From: Mycobacteriales bacterium
GTDB taxonomy: Bacteria > Actinomycetota > Actinomycetes > JAFAQI01
Reading direction: 5' to 3'
Assembly (NCBI GenBank): GCA_036267875.1
Contig: DATAVE010000064.1
Span: 3,546 to 67,545, forward strand
Length of the DNA: 64,000 nt
The notes below the pieces were generated by a model. That model made no database searches, had not been told where the DNA came from, and worked only from the letters and a program-made list of their open reading frames with translations. Below are positions 3,674-49,400 of the stretch, piece by piece; the stretch's first letter is position 1, and each line of letters begins with the position of its first letter. The translations under genes and the position numbers were made by a program.

Positions 3674-4600
3674 CTAGCGGGCGCGGCGAGCTCGTACGAC
3701 GGCGGGACCCGCGACCGCGAGGCGTCGTGGGGTGCTGACGGCCGCGCGTCGGTCGAGCACTCGGTAGCCGGACCGCTCGACCGCATCGAGGATGCCGCGA
3801 TAGAGCCGGAACGCCGTACGCACGCAGTCGCGCGACGCCGGTCGGAGCAACTCGATCCCCGGCTCGGCGGATCGGTAAAGCTCGTGCGCGCGGCTGATCT
3901 CGAATGCCAGCAGCGCCTTGATGTTTGCGTCGATCTTGCGAGCACCCAGGTCATCCGTTGTCACTCCGAACGCCGCGAGGTCCTCCTTCGGCAGATACAC
4001 CCGGCCGCGGTCGAGGTCCTCACCGAAATCGCGGATGAAGTTCGTCAGCTGGAACGCGAGGCCGAGAGTGCGGGCATACGGCTCCGCGTCGGCCTTGGCA
4101 CCGCGCACCGTGCCCAGGACAGGGACGAGCTGTGATCCGATCGCCGCTGCGGAGCCGTTCATGTAGCCGAGCAGGTCTTCCCACGTCGCGTACTCAGACG
4201 TCGTGAGATCCATCCGCATCGACGCCAGGAAGTCGTCGAACGGCCCGAGCGGGATGTTGTTGCGGACGATCGTGTCGTGCACTGCCGGCATCACTGGATC
4301 CGAGCCGGTGCCACGCACCAGCATGTTCGTCCACTCGGTGAGCTGTCGCTCGCGCTCAGCAACATCGAGTGCCGGATCTATCGAGTCGACGATCTCGTCA
4401 GCGCGCCGCGCGAACCCGTACAACGCGTGCACCGGCGGTCGCTTCGCCGGTGGAAGCAGCAGCGTCGCGAGATAGAAGGTGCGGCCGTGGGCTGCGTTGA
4501 CCGCGCGGCACGCGCGGTACGACGCGCGGAGCTGCGGGTCGTTGATCCCGGCCGCGTCGAGGGCTCGCCACAGGTTCATCTCTGACTCAGCTTCACGCAA
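3674..4600 (-). CDS. crtB: Phytoene synthase CrtB (squalene/phytoene synthase family)
   Basis: 308 aa ...YLATLLLPPAKRPPVHALYGFARRADEIVD... with typical trans-IPPS head-to-head motifs. Start overlaps the crtI stop. Confidence 0.85.
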   Translation of the reverse strand: MREAESEMNLWRALDAAGINDPQLRASYRACRAVNAAHGRTFYLATLLLPPAKRPPVHALYGFARRADEIVDSIDPALDVAERERQLTEWTNMLVRGTGSDPVMPAVHDTIVRNNIPLGPFDDFLASMRMDLTTSEYATWEDLLGYMNGSAAAIGSQLVPVLGTVRGAKADAEPYARTLGLAFQLTNFIRDFGEDLDRGRVYLPKEDLAAFGVTTDDLGARKIDANIKALLAFEISRAHELYRSAEPGIELLRPASRDCVRTAFRLYRGILDAVERSGYRVLDRRAAVSTPRRLAVAGPAVVRARRAR

Positions 4601-6071
4601 CCGCCCCGACGATTCGCTCTGCGGCCAGGCGCCCCGACATCAGCACCATGGGCACTCCGACACCCGGCTGGGTGCCGGTCCCGACGAAGACGACGTTGTC
4701 GAAGGCGAGGTTGCTGGGGCGGAACGGTCCGGTCTGGCCGAAGCTGTGGGCGATCGAGAACGGCGTGCCGTGCGCCAGACCCCGCCCGGCCCAGTCGGCC
4801 GGGGTGGTCCACGACTCGGCTTCGATGGCGTCACCGAATCCGGTGTAACCGAGCGTCTCGAGGCGATTCACGACCCGGTTACGGTAGCCCTCTCGGGTTG
4901 CGCCCCAGTCAACCGGTCCGTCCAGATTGGGCGTCGGCACCAGCACGTACCAGGACGACTTGCCGGCTGGCGCGAGCATTGGATCGGTGACCGTCGGCGC
5001 GGACACGAGCAGCGAGGGATCGGTGGCTGTCACCCGCTCGTCGATCAGCTCGCGGAACGTCTCGCGCCATGCCGCGCCGAAGTGGATCGTGTGATGCGCC
5101 TGACCGATCTGCGGCAAGGACGAGCCGGCGAGCATCAGCGCGCACGATGGCGCGTGCTGCATCCGGGCGAGGCGCCGTGGCGCGCTACCCGACGGCAGCA
5201 ACTCCCATGCAGTCGGCAGGTCGGCGTTGAGGACGACGACATCGGCGGTGATTCGCTCACCCGACTCGGTGTGGACTGCGACGGCCCGCGACCCCGCCAT
5301 CTCCACTCGGGTCACGGTCGTGTCGTAACGAAGCTCGACGCCGTGCTTCGTTGCGGCGCCCGCCAGGGCGACCGGCACGGCGTGCATCCCACCGTCGGGA
5401 AACCACACACCTGCGATGCAGTCCATGTAGGCGATGACGGCAAAGATCGCCAGCGCGTCGTACGGCGAGCGGCCGGCATACATCGCCTGGAACGTGAAGA
5501 TCCGGCGGAGTCGCTCGTCGTCGAAGAAGCTCCCGACCTTCGCGTCGAGGCGCCGGAACCCACCGAGCGCCACAAGCCGCGCAAGTGACGGACGTAACAA
5601 GTCGAGCGGACCGTCGAGGTTGCGATCGATGAAGTCCCGACGCTCCAAGTCGTAGAGCCGTCGCGCGTAGTGGGCGAACCGCCGGTAGCCGGCAGCATCC
5701 TTGGGGCCGATCACCGACGCGAGCTGATCACTCATCGCGTCGACATCGGCGATGACGTCGAGCTGTGAACCGTCGGCGAACCGCGCTCGATACGCAGGCT
5801 CGACGCGGCGCAATGTCAGCCAGTCATCGACGTTCTCGCCGACACAGTGCAGCGCCTCGGCGATCAGCTCCGGCATCGTCAGAACCGTCGGCCCGGTGTC
5901 GAAGCGAAAGCCGTCGATGGTGAGCTGGCCGGCGCGCCCACCCGGAATGGACTCGCGCTCCAGCACCGTCACTGTTCGTCCGGCGCCGGCGAGGCGCAGC
6001 GCCGTCGACAACCCGCCGAGACCTGCGCCGACGACCACTACATGGTCGGTCGGCCCGCTGACCGTTCGCAC
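4593..6071 (-). CDS. crtI: Phytoene desaturase CrtI
   Basis: 492 aa with N-terminal VVVVGAGLGGLSTALRLAGAG (FAD fold). CrtI-family length and C-terminal motif. Confidence 0.85.
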   Translation of the reverse strand: MRTVSGPTDHVVVVGAGLGGLSTALRLAGAGRTVTVLERESIPGGRAGQLTIDGFRFDTGPTVLTMPELIAEALHCVGENVDDWLTLRRVEPAYRARFADGSQLDVIADVDAMSDQLASVIGPKDAAGYRRFAHYARRLYDLERRDFIDRNLDGPLDLLRPSLARLVALGGFRRLDAKVGSFFDDERLRRIFTFQAMYAGRSPYDALAIFAVIAYMDCIAGVWFPDGGMHAVPVALAGAATKHGVELRYDTTVTRVEMAGSRAVAVHTESGERITADVVVLNADLPTAWELLPSGSAPRRLARMQHAPSCALMLAGSSLPQIGQAHHTIHFGAAWRETFRELIDERVTATDPSLLVSAPTVTDPMLAPAGKSSWYVLVPTPNLDGPVDWGATREGYRNRVVNRLETLGYTGFGDAIEAESWTTPADWAGRGLAHGTPFSIAHSFGQTGPFRPSNLAFDNVVFVGTGTQPGVGVPMVLMSGRLAAERIVGAVA

Positions 6072-9683: not shown

Positions 9684-10231
9684 AGATCGACTCCCATGAT
9701 CGCGTAGACCTCGGCGCTCCCCGGGAAGTTGAATCCGCACAGCAGGTCGACGAAGCCGCACGACCGGTAGAGCTGGCGCGCAGGGGTTTCGGAGTCGGGC
9801 GTCGAGAGCACCGCCTGTCGAGCCCGGGTCTGGCTCAGCACGTCGGTCAGCAGCTGACGGCCGATGCCGCTGCCCTGATGGCCGGGCTGGACGTGAAGCT
9901 CGGCGAGCTCGAAGCCGTCCCGCAGCCATCGCTTTGCGGCTTCACGACCGAGCGCGTGCGCGACGGTGTCGTACCACCACTGTCCGCCGGCGCCCAGATA
10001 GCCGTAGCCGAAGCCGACCAGCTCGCCGTCGAGGACGTCGTCGGAGTCAGCTGCACCGCCGTCGAACGCTGCTGTGCAGACGAACCCCGGGTTGCCGGCG
10101 TGCTCGGAGATGATCTCGCGCCGCTGTATGACGACCTCGGGGGAGCGGCGCATTGCCGCGCCATAGACCGACGCCGCAGGCCCAGCGACGGCGCGAAACT
10201 GGCCGCCGTCGAGTCGGCTCACGCGGGTCAT
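9680..10231 (-). CDS. GNAT family N-acetyltransferase
   Basis: 183 aa with acetyl-CoA binding motif (HVQPGHQGSGIGRQLL). Overlapping start/stop codons with ybaK upstream and the oxidoreductase downstream. Confidence 0.75.
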   Translation of the reverse strand: MTRVSRLDGGQFRAVAGPAASVYGAAMRRSPEVVIQRREIISEHAGNPGFVCTAAFDGGAADSDDVLDGELVGFGYGYLGAGGQWWYDTVAHALGREAAKRWLRDGFELAELHVQPGHQGSGIGRQLLTDVLSQTRARQAVLSTPDSETPARQLYRSCGFVDLLCGFNFPGSAEVYAIMGVDL

Positions 10232-10707
10232 GACCGCGCGACTTCTGCCGGTGTGCCGCCCGAGACCCGGACCAGCTCGTCGTAAGACGTGGGGAACACC
10301 GCGTGCGGCGTCCCTGCTGCGGCCCAGACGATCTCGAAGTCGCCGAGATGCTCATCGACCACGGTGGCCAGCGGCGCGGGATGTCCGACCGGCGCGACTC
10401 CGCCGATGGGGAAGCCGGTCGCCTCGCGGACCAGGTCGGCGTCGGCGCGCTTGACGGTGCCGACCCCGAGGACCGTCGCGACCTTGGCGGTGTCGACCTG
10501 GTGGTCACCACTTGCCAGGACCAGGATCGGCTGGCCATCGGCGGCGAAGACCAGGGACTTGACGATGGCACCGACCGGTACGCCAAGCGCGTCGGCGGCC
10601 TCGACCGCGGTGCGGGCCGAGTCGGCAAGCTCCTGGATTCGGTCAGCTGCGCCGTTGGCTTCGGCAGCTCGCAGGGCGGCGGCTACCCGCTCGGCATTCG
10701 CGTGCAC
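10228..10707 (-). CDS. ybaK: YbaK/ProX-type aminoacyl-tRNA deacylase domain protein
   Basis: C-terminal 159 aa of ORF 10228..11028 (…LGVPVGAIVKSLVF…GFPIGGVAPVGH…). Start trimmed to GTG 10707 just downstream of the divergent promoter. Confidence 0.65.
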   Translation of the reverse strand: MHANAERVAAALRAAEANGAADRIQELADSARTAVEAADALGVPVGAIVKSLVFAADGQPILVLASGDHQVDTAKVATVLGVGTVKRADADLVREATGFPIGGVAPVGHPAPLATVVDEHLGDFEIVWAAAGTPHAVFPTSYDELVRVSGGTPAEVARS

Positions 10708-10739
10708 CTTTCGGACCTTAGAACACGCCGAGTGAATGC

Positions 10740-10768
10740 TTGACGAGACAGGTATTCGAACATATGTT
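10740..10768 (+). promoter_or_regulatory. Sigma-A-like promoter for the HEPN-dinB operon (-35 TTGACG 10740-10745, 17-nt spacer, -10 TATGTT 10763-10768)
   Basis: Hexamers read directly from the sequence. It lies in an AT-richer 88-nt divergent intergenic region, with an AGGAGG RBS 7 nt before ATG 10795. Confidence 0.5.
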
Positions 10769-10771
10769 CGA
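10756..10771. promoter_or_regulatory. LexA SOS box (actinobacterial consensus TCGAAC-N4-GTTCGA)
   Basis: Perfect 16-bp palindrome TCGAACATATGTTCGA overlapping the spacer and -10 of the promoter above. Confidence 0.75.
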
Positions 10772-10794
10772 TACCTGAGCCAGGAGGTGGCGCG

Positions 10795-11310
10795 ATGACC
10801 CAGGCAGTGCTGGACAGGCCAGCTGAGGTGCGGCGCTCGGTAGCAGTCTTGCCGCAGCGAACGACAGTTCCGGCGTCGGCGTTGCGGCTGGTCGTGGCTG
10901 CCCGGCGTGCCCTTGGCGAGTCCGAGCAGGCGACCGATGTCGGCGAGCGCTACGCCGCGGCGCATCTCGCTGCGCTTCGCGCCGCCGCGGCCATCCTCGC
11001 GGCCGATGCTCGCCCGGAGTCGGAGCACCCGCTGCGACGCGGTCGACCGACCAGCGTCTGGACGCTGCTCCAGCGAGTCGCGCCGGAGCTCGCTGAGTGG
11101 GCCGCCTTCTTCGCTGCGGGTGCCGATCGACGGATTGCGGCTCAGGCCGGCTTGCGCGGTGCGGTCAGCCCGCGACAGGCCGATGACTTGCTGCGCGACT
11201 CGGGCCTGTTCCTCGATCTCGTTGCGGCGCGACTTGGCATGCCAGCCGTCGGTCAGGCAATGCTGCCGCTCGGCATGTCACCGGTCTACCCCGTCGGCGG
11301 CAACGCCTAG
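10795..11310 (+). CDS. SAV_6107-family HEPN domain protein
   Basis: 171 aa, alanine-rich helical protein recognised as the NCBI family 'SAV_6107 family HEPN domain-containing protein'. Strong RBS. It is followed after 63 nt by dinB. Confidence 0.6.
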   Translation: MTQAVLDRPAEVRRSVAVLPQRTTVPASALRLVVAARRALGESEQATDVGERYAAAHLAALRAAAAILAADARPESEHPLRRGRPTSVWTLLQRVAPELAEWAAFFAAGADRRIAAQAGLRGAVSPRQADDLLRDSGLFLDLVAARLGMPAVGQAMLPLGMSPVYPVGGNA

Positions 11311-11373
11311 CGTTGCATTGGTAGGGCCGGCGCAGCCGGCACCGCTAATCGGTGGTGGCGGGGCGGAGGACGT

Positions 11374-12603
11374 GTGAGCAGGCGCCAGCTCGAGCGTGGC
11401 GCTCGGCCGATTGACCTGCCGGGTGACGACACCGGCTGCACGATCCTGCACGCCGACATGGACGCGTTCTATGCCAGCGTCGAGCTTCGCCGTCACCCCG
11501 ATCTCGTCGGGAAGCCGGTCGTCGTTGGCCACCCGAGCGGCCGGGCGGTCGTGCTGGCGGCCACGTACGAGGCTCGCGAGTTCGGGATCCACAGCGCGAT
11601 GCCGATGGCGCAGGCGGTGCGCCGCTGTGCCGGCCTGGTCGTCGTACCGCCCGATCATGCGGCGTACGGCGACGCCTCTCGCGCGGTCATGGCGATCTTC
11701 CGGTCGGTGACCCCGGAGGTTGAGCCACTGTCGCTCGACGAGGCGTTTCTTGACGTGTCCGGGGCCATCAGGCGGCTCGGGAGTGCGCGCCAGATCGCCG
11801 TCGACATCCGCACCCGGATCGCTGAACAAGAGCGCCTGCCGTGTTCGATCGGAGTCGCGAGCACGAAGTTCGTCGCCAAGCTCGCATCATCGCGTGCCAA
11901 GCCCGACGGACTGCTGGTGGTGCCACGCGAATCGGTGCTCGCGTTCCTTCATCCGTTGCCGATCGGGGCGCTGTGGGGAGTTGGTGAGAAGACCGAAGCC
12001 GCGCTGACCCAGATCGGGCTGCGGACGATCGGCGAGCTCGCCGCGACCCCGGTCTCGACGCTCGTGCACACGCTCGGGAAGGCTGCCGGCGCACACCTGC
12101 ACTCGCTTGCCAACGGCCAGGATCCACGGCCCGTCGTACCCAACGAGCCCGACCGGAGCATCGGTGCAGAGGAGACCTTCGCGCAGGACATCGATGATCA
12201 CGACGGCATCCTGCGCGAGCTGCTTCGGCTCTCGGAGCGCTGCGCGGAGCGTTGCCGGGCGAGCGGCCAGGTGGGGCGCACGATCGCGATCAAGGTGCGC
12301 TTTTCCGACTTCCGCACGATCAGCCGGTCGCGCACCCTCACCGAGCCGACTGACGTCGCCCGGACGATCTACGAGACCGCCGTCCAGCTCTACGACGCGC
12401 TCGGCATCGAGGGCACCCCGTTGCGCCTCGTGGGCGTCCGGTTGGAAGGCATCGCGAGAGCCGCGGACGTCCCGCAGCAGCTCACCTTGAGCGGTGACGA
12501 CGAGGAGTGGCGCGCCGCCGAGCAGGCGGTGGATCGGGTCGCCGCGAAGTTCGGGAGGGATGCAGTTCGACCCGCCGCATTGGTCAAACGAAAGGCCGAA
12601 TGA
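11374..12603 (+). CDS. dinB: DNA polymerase IV (Y-family, DinB)
   Basis: ...ILHADMDAFYASVELRRHPDL...VVVG...EARE.GIHSAMP... UmuC/DinB motifs, 409 aa. Confidence 0.9.
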   Translation: MSRRQLERGARPIDLPGDDTGCTILHADMDAFYASVELRRHPDLVGKPVVVGHPSGRAVVLAATYEAREFGIHSAMPMAQAVRRCAGLVVVPPDHAAYGDASRAVMAIFRSVTPEVEPLSLDEAFLDVSGAIRRLGSARQIAVDIRTRIAEQERLPCSIGVASTKFVAKLASSRAKPDGLLVVPRESVLAFLHPLPIGALWGVGEKTEAALTQIGLRTIGELAATPVSTLVHTLGKAAGAHLHSLANGQDPRPVVPNEPDRSIGAEETFAQDIDDHDGILRELLRLSERCAERCRASGQVGRTIAIKVRFSDFRTISRSRTLTEPTDVARTIYETAVQLYDALGIEGTPLRLVGVRLEGIARAADVPQQLTLSGDDEEWRAAEQAVDRVAAKFGRDAVRPAALVKRKAE

Positions 12604-12694: not shown

Positions 12695-13120
12695 GTGCCG
12701 CTCTCCGATCACGAGCAGCGTCTGCTCGAGCAGATCGAGCAAGCGCTGTATGACGAAGATCCGAAGTTCGCGCGCCTCTACCAGACCACCGATGTCCGCA
12801 GTCACTATCGGCGTCGGCTGATCAGAGCTGCGATCGGCGTGGTCTTCGGTCTCGCCATGCTCCTGGCCGCCGTCATCGTGCCGTTGATCCCGCTCGGCGT
12901 CGCGGCCTTCCTGGTGATGCTGGCCAGCGCGTCGTACGGCATCGCGTCATGGCAGCGGATGGTCGGTCAGCGCATTGGAAGGTCCGCCGACCAGCCTGGC
13001 CCGGCTCGCCGGTCACGTCGTACCAAGACGCGGGGTAGCAAGGTCCAGGGCGGCGATGGCCAGTCGTTGCTGCAGCGGCTCGAGGAGCGCTGGCAGCGCC
13101 GCCAGGACGGCGACCGTTAG
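12695..13120 (+). CDS. DUF3040 domain membrane protein (Rv2169c-like)
   Basis: VPLSDHEQRLLEQIEQALYDEDPKF signature followed by 2 transmembrane helices. GTG start with a GAGGAGG RBS. Confidence 0.7.
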   Translation: MPLSDHEQRLLEQIEQALYDEDPKFARLYQTTDVRSHYRRRLIRAAIGVVFGLAMLLAAVIVPLIPLGVAAFLVMLASASYGIASWQRMVGQRIGRSADQPGPARRSRRTKTRGSKVQGGDGQSLLQRLEERWQRRQDGDR

Positions 13121-18336: not shown

Positions 18337-18502
18337 AGGCCCAGTGAGCAGAGCCGCTTCTAGCGAACGTGCAGGTGTGTGTCGTGGCCCCTGCCGACGT
18401 CCCCTGAGATCACTTCCCCGGTCTCAGGCGTCGGCGGCAGGGACCAGGCCACACACCAGGTTCAGATTCCAAATCCCAGCGAGAGCAGCCCGAAAGGACG
18501 TC

Positions 18503-46427: not shown

Positions 46428-49400
46428 ATGGACTCCGTGGGTGCCGACAAGTTCGTGCACCTGCACGTCCACAGCGAGTACTCGATGCTCGACGGCGCCG
46501 CCCGGGTGTCCGAGCTGTTCGAGGAAGCCGCCCGCCAGGAGATGCCCGCGCTGGCGATGACCGACCACGGCAACGTGTTCGGTGCGTATGAGTTCTGGAA
46601 GAAGGGCAAGGCCGCCGGGGTCAAGCCGATCATCGGCATGGAGGCGTACATCACGCCTGGGACCTCTCGCTACGAGCGGACCAGGGTTCGCTGGGCCGAG
46701 GGCGGCGAAGACGACGTCTCCGGTGGCGGCGCCTTCACCCACATGACGCTGCTCGCCGAGACCACGCAGGGGATGCACAACCTCTTTCGGCTGGCGAGCC
46801 GGTCCAGCCTCGAGGGCTACTTCTACAAGCCGCGTGCCGATCGCGAGCTGATCAGCGAGTATGCGAAGGGCATGATCGCGAGCACCGGCTGCCCGTCGGG
46901 GGAGATCCAGACCAAGCTGCGGATCGGCGACTACGAGGGCGCGAAGCTGGTCGCCGGCGAGCTGCAGGACATCTTCGGCCGTGAGTCGTTCTTCTGCGAG
47001 CTGATGAACCACGGCCTCGACATCGAGACCCGAGTCCACGCCGATCTGATCCGGCTGTCCAAGGATCTGAACATCCCGACGATCGCGACCAATGACCTGC
47101 ACTACACCTACGCCAAGGATGCCGAGGCCCACGAGGTCCTGCTCTGCGTGCAGTCCGGCAAGACGATGGCGGACCCCAACCGCTTCAAGTTCGACGCCAA
47201 GGACTTCTACCTCAAGAGTGCGCAGGAGATGCGACAGCTCTGGCGGGAGCTGCCCGAGGCCTGCGACAACACCCTGCTGATCGCACAGCGCTGCGAGGTC
47301 GAGTTCGACGAAGGCGCGGACCTGATGCCGCGTTTCGAGGTGCCCGAGGGGCAGACCGAGGACACCTGGCTGCGTGACGAGGTCCACCGTGGGCTGGACG
47401 CGCGCATGCGGGGTGCCGTCGTACCCCCCGAGTACCGCGAGCGGGCGGACTTCGAGCTCGGCGTGATCATCCAGATGGGCTTCCCGGGCTACTTCCTCGT
47501 GGTTGCTGACCTGTGCCGCCACGCGCGCGAGTCGGGCATCCGGGTCGGTCCCGGGCGTGGCTCGGCGGCTGGGTCGCTCGTCGCCTGGGCGTTGCGCATC
47601 ACCGAGCTCGACCCGATCGAGCACGGGCTGCTGTTCGAGCGCTTTCTCAACCCCGAGCGCGTGTCGATGCCTGACGTCGACCTGGACTTCGACGAGCGTC
47701 GGCGCGGCGACATGATCCGCTACGCCACGGAGAAGTACGGCGAGGATCGGGTCAGCCAGATCATCACCTACAGCACCATCAAGGCGAAGGCGGCCGTCAA
47801 GGACGCGGCCCGGGTCCTTGGCTTCCCGTATGGCATCGGCGACAAGATCACGAAGGCGATGCCCGCGCCGGTCATGGGCAAGGACCTTCCGCTGGCCGCG
47901 ATCTTCGACCCAGCGCACGAGCGCTACGGCGAGGGCAAGGACTTCCGCCAGCTCTACGAGACCGAGCACGACGTCAAGAAGGTCGTCGACACCGCTCGCG
48001 GCCTCGAGGGGCTTCGTCGCCAGTGGGGCGTCCATGCGGCCGGCGTGATCCTGTCGCGGTACCCGCTGCTCGACGTCATCCCCATCCAGCGGCGAGAGGT
48101 CGACGGCGCGATCATCACGCAGTTCGACATGGGTGCCTGCGAGTCACTCGGCCTGCTGAAGATGGACTTCCTCGGGCTGCGCAACCTCACGGTGCTCGAC
48201 GATGCGCTACGGCACATCCAGACCAACCGGGGCGAGACGATCGACCTCGAGACGTTGCCGTTGGATCGCCCGGAGGCCTACGAGCTGCTGTGCCGTGGCG
48301 ACACGATCGGCGTCTTCCAGTTCGAGGGCGGGCCGATGCGCTCGCTCATCAGGTCGCTGCAGCCGTCGGCGTTCGAGGACATCGCGGCGCTCAACGCGCT
48401 GTATCGACCTGGCCCGATGGGCATGGGCAGCCACCTCGCCTACGTCGAGCGGAAGCACGGTCGCCAGAAGATCGACCCGATCCACCCGGAGTTCGCCGAG
48501 TCGCTTGTCGACCTGCTCGCCGAGACCTACGGCGTGATCGTCTATCAGGAGCAGGTCATGGCGATCGCGCAGCGCGTCGCCGGCTACTCGCTTGCACAAG
48601 CGGACACGCTGCGCCGGGCGATGGGCAAGAAGAAGAAGGAGATCCTCGACAAGGAGAAGATCCCGTTCAGCGACGGCATGAAGTCGCGCGGCTACAGCCA
48701 GCCGGCGATCGACAAGCTGTGGGAGACGTTGATCCCGTTCGCGGACTACGCCTTCAACAAGTCCCACGCCGCGGGCTACGGCTTGGTGTCGTACTGGACG
48801 GCATTTCTCAAGTCGCACTACCCGGCGGAGTACATGGCCGCGCTGCTCACGTCGGTGCGCGACGACAAGGACAAGAGCGCGCTCTACCTGCACGAGTGCC
48901 GTCGGATGGGCATCAAGGTGCTGCCGCCGGATGTGAACTCCTCCGATGCGGACTTTGCGCCGGTTGGCACCGACATCCGCTATGGCATGGCTGGCATCCG
49001 CAACGTCGGTGCCAACGTGGTCTCGTCGATCTGCGCCACCCGGCGCAGCAAGGGCATGTACCTCGACTTCGCCGACTTCCTGACCAAGGTCGATCCGGTG
49101 GTCTGCAACAAGAAGACGATCGAGTCGCTGATCAAAGCCGGTGCGTTCGACTCCCTCGGCCACACCCGACAGGGCTTGTTGCGGGTCCACGCCGAGGCGA
49201 TCGACGCCTGCATGGACACCAAGCGCAACGAGGCAGTTGGTCAGTTCGATCTGTTCAGCGCGGGTGATGGCGATGGTGGGGCCGAGCCGACGATGGCGCT
49301 GAACCTGATCATCCCGGTGAGCGAGTGGGACAAGACGATGCTGCTCGCCTACGAGCGAGAGATGCTCGGCCTCTACGTCTCGGACCATCCACTGTTCGGG

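Follow-up and report, generated by a model that had tools for sequence, protein, structure and literature searches.

A 64,000-nucleotide stretch of contig DATAVE010000064.1 from a Mycobacteriales bacterium (assembly GCA_036267875.1), referred to here in its entirety as the window, carries a gene for a SAV_6107-family HEPN-fold protein followed by dinB, which encodes DNA polymerase IV (Pol IV). The two genes probably form a LexA-repressed, damage-inducible HEPN-DinB operon derived from a larger ancestral actinobacterial cassette. To place this pair in context, an alignment of the HEPN family was scanned against one genome per GTDB species and against JGI metagenomes, and the best 80 loci of each scan were kept. 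Approximately 170 related loci, designated L with a number, were compared; most are metagenomic and they are not phylogenetically independent.

The promoter region of the window contains the 16-bp palindrome TCGAACATATGTTCGA (positions 10756-10771), which has no mismatch to the LexA (SOS) operator TCGAAC-N4-GTTCGA. No other site in the 64 kb window fits without a mismatch, and base composition predicts 0.0014 perfect boxes for a stretch of this size. The weaker, two-mismatch sites are noise, since 8 box-like sites with at most two mismatches were seen against 3.7 expected. A consensus promoter scan detected TTGACG-N17-TATGTT as the single sigma-70-like site between 10500 and 12900 (0.2 expected), with the -35 hexamer TTGACG at 10740-10745 and the -10 hexamer TATGTT at 10763-10768, both on the plus strand. 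Because the -10 falls inside the palindrome, the operator overlaps the core promoter. A ribosome-binding site, AGGAGG (10783-10788, plus strand), was read from the sequence 6 nt before the HEPN ATG and is also present in L161-L163. The ATG itself, at 10795, lies 23 nt past the box and 26 nt past the -10. An earlier sequence-only reading of this DNA had reported the perfect box and a TTGACG/TATGTT promoter whose -10 it overlaps, and both are confirmed; the 25 nt that it gave as the distance to the HEPN gene is close to the values found here. The M. tuberculosis LexA box consensus served as the operator reference. In S. venezuelae, LexA has been found experimentally to bind TCGAAC-type sites (PMC9380542). 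The palindrome is thus very probably a LexA operator, at which LexA would bind and through which the operon would be induced by damage.

Conservation among relatives agrees with this assignment. When the upstream sequences of seven relatives (HEPN identity, 56-91%) were aligned, CTTGAC and TCGAAC.TATGTTCGA proved to be the sole invariant blocks amid varying flanks, a pattern that reads as a clean phylogenetic footprint of promoter and operator. A polymerase gene lies downstream of HEPN in 67 loci, and in 45 of them the upstream sequence extends for 800 bp or more. Every one of the 45 has a box, perfect in 41 and with one mismatch in 4; these loci contain 22 different box sequences with variable spacers and 41 distinct HEPN sequences. 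The 15 polymerase-linked loci lacking a box all have too little upstream sequence. By comparison, the 71 comparable loci without a polymerase, which are of the Streptomyces type, contain 1 perfect box and 3 one-mismatch boxes. Outside the HEPN upstream zones, 895 kb of locus sequence contain just three perfect boxes, each located between HEPN and the downstream polymerase gene and immediately before the latter (L140:3860-3875, L123:458-473 and L114:1655-1670). These appear to be second operators for the polymerase, so that HEPN and polymerase would each have an operator of their own in these loci. As the loci share ancestry, the box counts are not probabilities, yet the contrast is still stark.

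The HEPN gene (10795-11310, plus strand) encodes a 171-residue protein that matches Pfam PF18726 (8.9e-35). The downstream dinB gene (11374-12603, plus strand) encodes a 409-residue protein with intact catalytic residues and the IMS (PF00817, 8.4e-51), IMS_HHH and IMS_C (PF11799, 1.6e-31) domains. Against the NCBIfam DNA polymerase IV model (PRK03858 / NF003015) it scores 393.9 bits, over a cut-off of 367; all of its best NCBIfam models are DNA polymerase IV, and its closest PDB matches are bacterial Pol IV structures. The translation contains the catalytic carboxylate motifs HADMDAFYASVE and SLDEAFLDV, the carboxylates being those that we take to correspond to E. coli D8/D103/E104, together with an aromatic steric gate and a possible clamp-binding motif (QQLTLSG). 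Because the carboxylate motifs and the steric gate are kept, the enzyme is classified as a predicted active-type Pol IV and not as ImuB.

The two genes are very likely co-transcribed. The HEPN gene ends at 11310, leaving a spacer of 63 nt (11311-11373, plus strand) in which a scan found no terminator-like site. The spacer folds no better than shuffled sequence (z = -0.19) and is not repeated elsewhere in the window. Relative to L161 and L162, whose HEPN is 91% identical, it contains a GC-rich insertion of 54 nt (11317-11370), and in L161-L163 only 9 nt separate the HEPN stop from the dinB ATG. Overlaps of 4 nt occur in relatives at the DUF6504/HEPN, HEPN/DnaE and methyltransferase/dinB junctions. 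The 63-nt gap and the identity of dinB are as the sequence-only reading had them. Its central proposal, a LexA-controlled, damage-inducible HEPN-dinB unit, is backed by the conservation of operator and promoter in relatives and by the tight gene spacing.

The comparison with related loci indicates that this unit is part of something larger. Among the genome loci, 73 of 80 are from Streptomyces and contain HEPN, a class I S-adenosylmethionine (SAM) methyltransferase and DUF3040, with no polymerase within 4 kb and no perfect box. The seven non-Streptomyces genome loci (7/7) and most metagenome loci share a different arrangement: a perfect box, a DUF6504 gene of ∼100 codons, HEPN, and a polymerase set consisting of a 1220-1315-residue DnaE-family polymerase and/or a methyltransferase plus dinB. 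Many contigs are cut, and the architecture counts are therefore lower bounds. The order DUF6504-HEPN-DnaE was found in at least 38 loci, HEPN-DnaE with the upstream part cut off in at least 4, (DUF6504-)HEPN-DnaE-dinB in at least 3, and (DUF6504-)HEPN-methyltransferase-dinB in at least 8. HEPN is followed directly by dinB in at least 8 loci, the window included, and by the methyltransferase only in at least 85, almost all from Streptomyces. Searches begun from DUF6504 again return DUF6504-HEPN pairs.

Several loci connect the full arrangement to that of the window. L168 and L169 occupy the same site and read DUF6504-HEPN-DnaE (1240-1315 aa)-DinB (IMS)-DUF3040, with perfect boxes in both; ybaK is divergent upstream in L169, and L168 has TgpA downstream and no adjacent ybaK. 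In L167 and L170 the DnaE copy is followed by a methyltransferase gene, with a gene for a Y-family polymerase lying further on in L167. Three metagenomic contigs (L161-L163) with 91%-identical HEPN show GNAT and ybaK on the divergent side and HEPN, dinB and DUF3040 on the other. L165, a Mycobacteriales metagenome-assembled genome with 80%-identical HEPN, has the order HEPN, SAM methyltransferase, dinB and DUF3040, the methyltransferase and dinB overlapping by 4 nt, and appears to be an intermediate form between the full cassette and the window. In L112, L138 and L144 a DinB is encoded behind the DnaE copy, and the window DinB shares 52-59% identity with it; owing to this identity and to the same position in L168 and L169, the window protein is regarded as a likely orthologue of the ‘DnaE2-coupled’ DinB.

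The window therefore fits the cassette definition, with LexA box, HEPN and dinB between ybaK and DUF3040, a frame that is also found in L161, L165 and L169. The upstream anchor is the divergent ybaK-like tRNA-editing gene (10228-10707, minus strand; Pfam tRNA_edit, 8.4e-30), which is also the divergent neighbour in many related loci. The downstream anchor is a DUF3040/SCO2097-family gene (12695-13120, plus strand; Pfam DUF3040, 1e-23; NCBIfam SCO2097_fam, 1.1e-37). DUF3040 is a neighbour common to L161, L165, L168, L169 and the Streptomyces locus L017, a synteny that rests on Pfam-labelled gene calls. Further downstream, an mraW RNA motif (18369-18466, plus strand; Rfam, above the gathering score) positions the locus shortly before the dcw cell-division cluster. 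No DUF6504 gene precedes HEPN in the window, where a box 23 nt before the ATG leaves no room for one, and no second DnaE, imuB-like gene or DUF6504 (the last by tblastn) was detected in the 64 kb. The window thus appears to be a reduced form of a conserved cassette, DUF6504-HEPN-DnaE-like-(methyltransferase)-DinB, lying between ybaK and DUF3040/the dcw cluster. DUF6504 and the DnaE copy would have disappeared from its lineage, as would the methyltransferase, whose loss L165 suggests to be the latest.

This outcome modifies the two-gene module put forward in the sequence-only reading. The HEPN-dinB unit stands, but as a reduced form of a larger cassette at the same site and not as a self-standing module. 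The reading had also proposed checking HEPN-dinB adjacency and SOS boxes across Actinobacteria. The boxes hold in 45 of 45 polymerase-linked loci; direct adjacency to dinB is the minority arrangement, the usual partner being the second DnaE, and Streptomyces, which supplies most sequenced members, has no polymerase neighbour, with 1 perfect box in the 71 polymerase-less loci. The literature searched contains no paper with ‘DUF6504’, none combining ‘HEPN’ with ‘DnaE2’, and none linking SAV_6107 or DUF6504 to translesion polymerases; ‘SAV_6107’ appears only in a 2013 HEPN survey. The DUF6504-HEPN-second DnaE-DinB cassette is apparently widespread in actinobacteria and undescribed.

Some features of the other cassette members deserve mention. 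The cassette DnaE fits no curated family: its scores miss the cut-offs of the ‘error-prone DNA polymerase’ and the ‘Pol III alpha’ models alike, and its PDB matches are generic Pol III alpha, for which reasons second DnaE-family copy, and not ImuC, seems the appropriate name. The small DUF6504 protein is all-beta, and no fold match to it was found in the PDB. In the DUF6504 cluster representative P0127, the gene call begins upstream of the true Met-Pro-Ala start and translates the LexA box (‘FERMFE’, from TTCGAACGTATGTTCGAA); this early start is an annotation artefact. Three loci with a long leader and no DUF6504 (L004:∼3885-3900, L122:∼1235-1250 and L085:∼400-415) contain a GGGGAAGCA-like element shortly past the box, perhaps left over from the DUF6504 start, perhaps an element of the leader. 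The methyltransferase, which accompanies HEPN in most genomes and is absent from the window, shows a weak, far-sub-cut-off likeness to the tRNA methyltransferase CmoM (L040:4399-5358, L165:5539-6294, L017:4667-5437).

The proposed mechanism follows from this arrangement. In undamaged cells, a LexA dimer on the 16-bp palindrome would block RNA polymerase because the palindrome holds the -10 of the only promoter. Upon damage, RecA-stimulated self-cleavage of LexA would free the promoter, and one mRNA would then encode the SAV_6107-family HEPN-fold protein and DinB, the latter carrying out translesion synthesis. The ancestral cassette would have run from the operator through DUF6504, HEPN, the second DnaE-family polymerase and, in some forms, the SAM methyltransferase to DinB. 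The HEPN protein may, tentatively, be an accessory to translesion synthesis. Such a partnership is suggested by its retention in every polymerase-containing variant, by its frequent translational coupling and by the presence in one lineage of its own operator, distinct from the one that dinB has. A more speculative extension makes HEPN_SAV_6107 and DUF6504 dedicated accessory subunits of a damage-inducible polymerase complex (second DnaE plus DinB). They would then fill the ImuA'/ImuB role in lineages scored as having a ‘lone’ imuC or dnaE2, and the window would be a minimal version.

Several observations weigh against coupling the HEPN gene to damage-induced synthesis in this way. In Streptomyces, the gene stays at the ancestral site with the methyltransferase only and without LexA box or polymerases; the box thus seems to track the polymerases more closely than it tracks HEPN, and the HEPN protein can clearly act without an adjacent polymerase. 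The S. venezuelae gene vnz_08605, identified as the probable HEPN orthologue from gene order and gene lengths, is absent from the LexA chromatin immunoprecipitation (ChIP) lists and, among the rows listed, from the mitomycin C table, which counts as weak negative evidence. In the window itself, the 63-nt spacer exceeds that of relatives, so an internal dinB promoter may exist, though none was detected by scan.

The same facts lend some substance to the explanation that HEPN is a passenger, an ancestral resident of the site whose function is unrelated to translesion synthesis (e.g., shared with the SAM methyltransferase) and whose promoter the polymerases came to share. The at least 85 loci with HEPN and methyltransferase alone, nearly devoid of boxes, and the silence on vnz_08605 in the sources just described would be expected under it. 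Streptomyces retains HEPN-methyltransferase-DUF3040 at the ancestral site and has dnaE2-dinB2 elsewhere with LexA sites of its own (PMC3273824, PMC9380542). This explanation is nonetheless judged slightly less likely than the accessory role. HEPN is kept first or second in every polymerase-containing variant, the most reduced included. HEPN possesses a one-mismatch box of its own in the L110/L116/L131/L140/L141 lineage, and immediately ahead of dinB an additional, perfect box is found in L123 and L140. No polymerase lies within 4 kb in L086 and L122, yet both retain a perfect box in front of HEPN. DUF6504, in turn, is always paired with HEPN, also when DUF6504 is the starting point of the search.

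Two promoter designs were distinguished among the related loci. In design 1 (L004, L081, L085, L130, L133, L150, L160-L166 and the window clade), the operator spacer is always [AG]TAT, which builds the -10 TATGTT into the operator, 17 nt after TTGAC. Only 3-5 nt separate the box from the ATG in L165, L166 and L081, suggesting a leaderless mRNA. Design 2, present in most DUF6504-containing loci, has the form TTGACG..TGTCGGnG-N7/8-TAnnnT, with the operator beginning 8-10 nt after the -10. Its upstream element matches the RecA-NDp motif (consensus tTGTCRgtg-8 nt-TAnnnT; PMC5656591), through which PafBC, an activator independent of LexA, acts in mycobacteria (PMC6789036, PMC8223512). The form TGTCGGTG-N8-TAnnnT occurs in L026:3334-3379, L045:3270-3316, L119:48-93 and L158:3260-3306, and variants occur in L138:3343-3389 (TGTCAGTG-N8) and L168:∼5340-5386 (N7 spacing). 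In these six the RecA-NDp-type promoter lies 30-31 bp before the start of the LexA box, which is perfect except in L138 (one mismatch). Because a RecA-NDp-type promoter precedes the LexA box, dual control of the cassette by PafBC as activator and LexA as repressor is suggested for many lineages. The motif is absent from the window.

The Streptomyces-type loci show upstream elements of their own. In 80 of 85 HEPN-methyltransferase loci, TGTCAGTG-N8-CA(C/G)nAT occupies a fixed position ∼70-110 bp before the HEPN ATG (e.g., L037:3835-3856 and L017:3824-3845, among L001-L079 and other Streptomyces-type loci), against a background of 8 motifs in 1725 kb. It resembles the PafBC/RecA-NDp promoter, but its -10 starts with C. 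Most Streptomyces loci (e.g., L017:∼3750-3776) also have the palindrome TTTGAACTGAC(C/T)GGTCAGT(G/T)CAAAA between divergent ABC-transporter genes and HEPN, which is probably the operator of a nearby TetR-family regulator.

The sequence-only reading had further suggested that the box could repress the divergent operon, whose ybaK, GNAT and oxidoreductase (amine oxidase) genes are arranged as it described. The location of the box makes this conceivable: it sits in the 87-bp intergenic region shared with ybaK, ∼49 bp from the ybaK start, and ybaK is divergent in many relatives. The geometry does not favour it. The promoter scan places no minus-strand promoter over the box. A plausible minus-strand -10, TAAGGT, lies 7 nt before the ybaK GTG, with TAnnnT equivalents in L161, L165 and L081; as it is ∼35-40 bp from the box, LexA would sit upstream of that promoter's -35. 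Moreover, ybaK is absent in L165 and L166, and other genes intervene in L168 and L170, yet the relation of the box to the plus-strand promoter stays fixed. A main or additional role of the box in repressing ybaK-GNAT-oxidoreductase is accordingly judged improbable.

To analyze the HEPN protein itself, a structural model generated with AlphaFold2 was compared with known structures. The model is all-helical with a confident core (predicted local distance difference test, 83; predicted TM-score, 0.72) and has helices at residues 27-45, 49-71, 88-117 and 126-146. The top Foldseek matches in the PDB are HEPN domains: AF_0298 (2hsb), sacsin (3o10), ST0689 (1wol) and 4nqf, each with a probability of ∼1, E-values of 0.02-0.5 and TM-scores of 0.5-0.68 on the target. 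The modelled structure thus confirms a four-helix up-down HEPN fold. An alignment of 90 family members shows three invariant residues in the last helix, R127, D130 and R134, with R127 at the N-terminus of that helix, the canonical position of the HEPN arginine. In the same 90 sequences the last helix has no conserved histidine, and the Rx4-6H RNase motif is absent: positions +5 to +7 after R127 are L, L/V/M and R134, and L, V or R stands where the histidine would be. The 2013 HEPN survey lists the SAV_6107 family as actinobacterial, with motif conservation ‘No’ and no gene context (PMC3710099).

Other searches with the protein were negative. It matches no model among PADLOC, PHROG or NCBIfam, a tblastn search of 72,556 plasmids returned nothing, and sequence searches of all PDB chains with the HEPN profile and with DUF6504 gave no significant match. 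No MNT or other antitoxin-like partner is present in the window, where the neighbours of HEPN are ybaK and dinB. The distribution of the gene in the compared loci points to vertical inheritance at a fixed chromosomal site across the phylum.

These data bear on the hint in the sequence-only reading that the HEPN protein might be an RNase or toxin. In E. coli dinB-yafNOP, toxin-antitoxin genes are co-transcribed with an SOS polymerase. An SOS-induced HEPN RNase that arrests growth during repair would be a parallel; HEPN superfamily members are often RNase toxins (PMC3710099), and the invariant arginine is in the expected place. The missing Rx4-6H motif, the missing MNT partner and the lack of a PADLOC or PHROG match all speak against the hint. 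Inheritance at a fixed site, with no plasmid copies, is likewise unlike that of mobile toxin-antitoxin modules, and a growth-arresting RNase is a distinctly unlikely explanation. On these grounds a toxin or defence role is disfavoured and a non-catalytic binding protein favoured. Rather than an RNase, the preferred if tentative reading of HEPN is a non-enzymatic partner of the damage-induced polymerases that would bind nucleic acid or protein. Finally, it is hardly credible that the palindrome arose by chance or serves a different regulator, given the expected 0.0014 boxes per window, its persistence with variable spacers in 45 of 45 related loci and its near absence elsewhere in the 895 kb.

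The operon resembles several known systems. A functional parallel is the imuA-imuB-dnaE2 cassette and its mycobacterial counterpart, the ImuA'-ImuB-DnaE2 mutasome, in which small proteins are likewise encoded before error-prone polymerases in a LexA-box operon; in relatives of the window, DUF6504 and HEPN precede the second DnaE-family and Y-family polymerases. ImuA and ImuA' are RecA-like (RecA/SulA-like alpha/beta) proteins encoded upstream of imuB, whereas the HEPN protein consists of helices arranged in a HEPN fold and has no NCBIfam match. ImuB has lost the carboxylates and carries a C-terminal extension (∼500 aa), unlike the 409-residue Y-family enzyme of the window, which keeps them. 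The window also lacks DnaE2, and the DnaE of its relatives falls below the error-prone and replicative curated cut-offs. The locus is therefore not a member of the imu family, which it resembles in function. The regulation and variability of the imu cassette have been reviewed, and the review, citing Erill 2006, mentions ‘lone imuC’ genes in some Actinobacteria (PMC3901139); near these, the short genes for DUF6504 and HEPN may have escaped notice.

The Streptomyces dnaE2-dinB2 (dinP) operon has the same DnaE-DinB order as L112, L138, L144, L168 and L169 and is also under LexA/SOS control. In S. venezuelae, dnaE2-dinP is bound by LexA (ChIP-seq, surface plasmon resonance) and induced 14- to 31-fold by mitomycin C (RNA-seq; PMC9380542), and in S. 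coelicolor dnaE2-dinB2 is induced by ultraviolet light (PMC3273824). This operon lies elsewhere in the chromosome with no HEPN or DUF6504 neighbour, whereas the window keeps HEPN and DinB and has lost the DnaE copy. On an S. venezuelae plasmid, pvnz_37140 (hypothetical, 252 bp) and pvnz_37135 (Pol IV) are bound by LexA and induced by mitomycin C (PMC9380542), and the likeness is evident: a small unknown gene, then Pol IV. As a HEPN homologue, pvnz_37140 was rejected: it encodes only ∼83 residues, and the pair is not homologous to HEPN-dinB because tblastn against the 72,556 plasmids recovered no SAV_6107 relative.

Further parallels are found in E. coli and among HEPN toxins. In E. coli dinB-yafN-yafO-yafP and umuDC, the LexA operator overlaps the promoter of a translesion polymerase, and small accessory or unrelated genes are co-transcribed. 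The E. coli LexA consensus, CTGT-N8-ACAG, is unlike the TCGAAC type. In the window the order begins with the small gene, whose product adopts a HEPN fold and which is unrelated to those accessory genes. With HEPN-MNT toxin-antitoxin systems and HEPN RNases, the protein shares the four-helix fold and the conserved arginine that starts the last helix, but it has no catalytic histidine, nucleotidyltransferase partner, defence-model match or sign of mobility.

Further features of the window complete the picture. Beyond ybaK, the divergent side carries the GNAT and amine oxidase genes, and a transglutaminase gene follows the DUF3040/SCO2097-family gene downstream. A DnaE-family gene at ∼46437-49157 (plus strand) shares 31% identity with the cassette-type DnaE from L026 and presumably represents replicative dnaE1. 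A thiamine pyrophosphate (TPP) riboswitch lies at 845-947 on the minus strand (Rfam, above the gathering score).

SOS-controlled error-prone polymerases drive stress-induced mutation and the evolution of drug resistance in Actinobacteria. To our knowledge, accessory factors of the SOS polymerases of this group are known only for the mycobacterial ImuA'-ImuB-DnaE2 system. The second DnaE of Streptomyces is without an assigned function (PMC3273824). The conserved operon structure and LexA operator described here tie two uncharacterised, phylum-wide families, the SAV_6107-type HEPN proteins and DUF6504, to SOS polymerases. Both are concrete candidates for missing polymerase partners or regulators, and the association would give a first functional context to a HEPN family for which the 2013 survey gave none.

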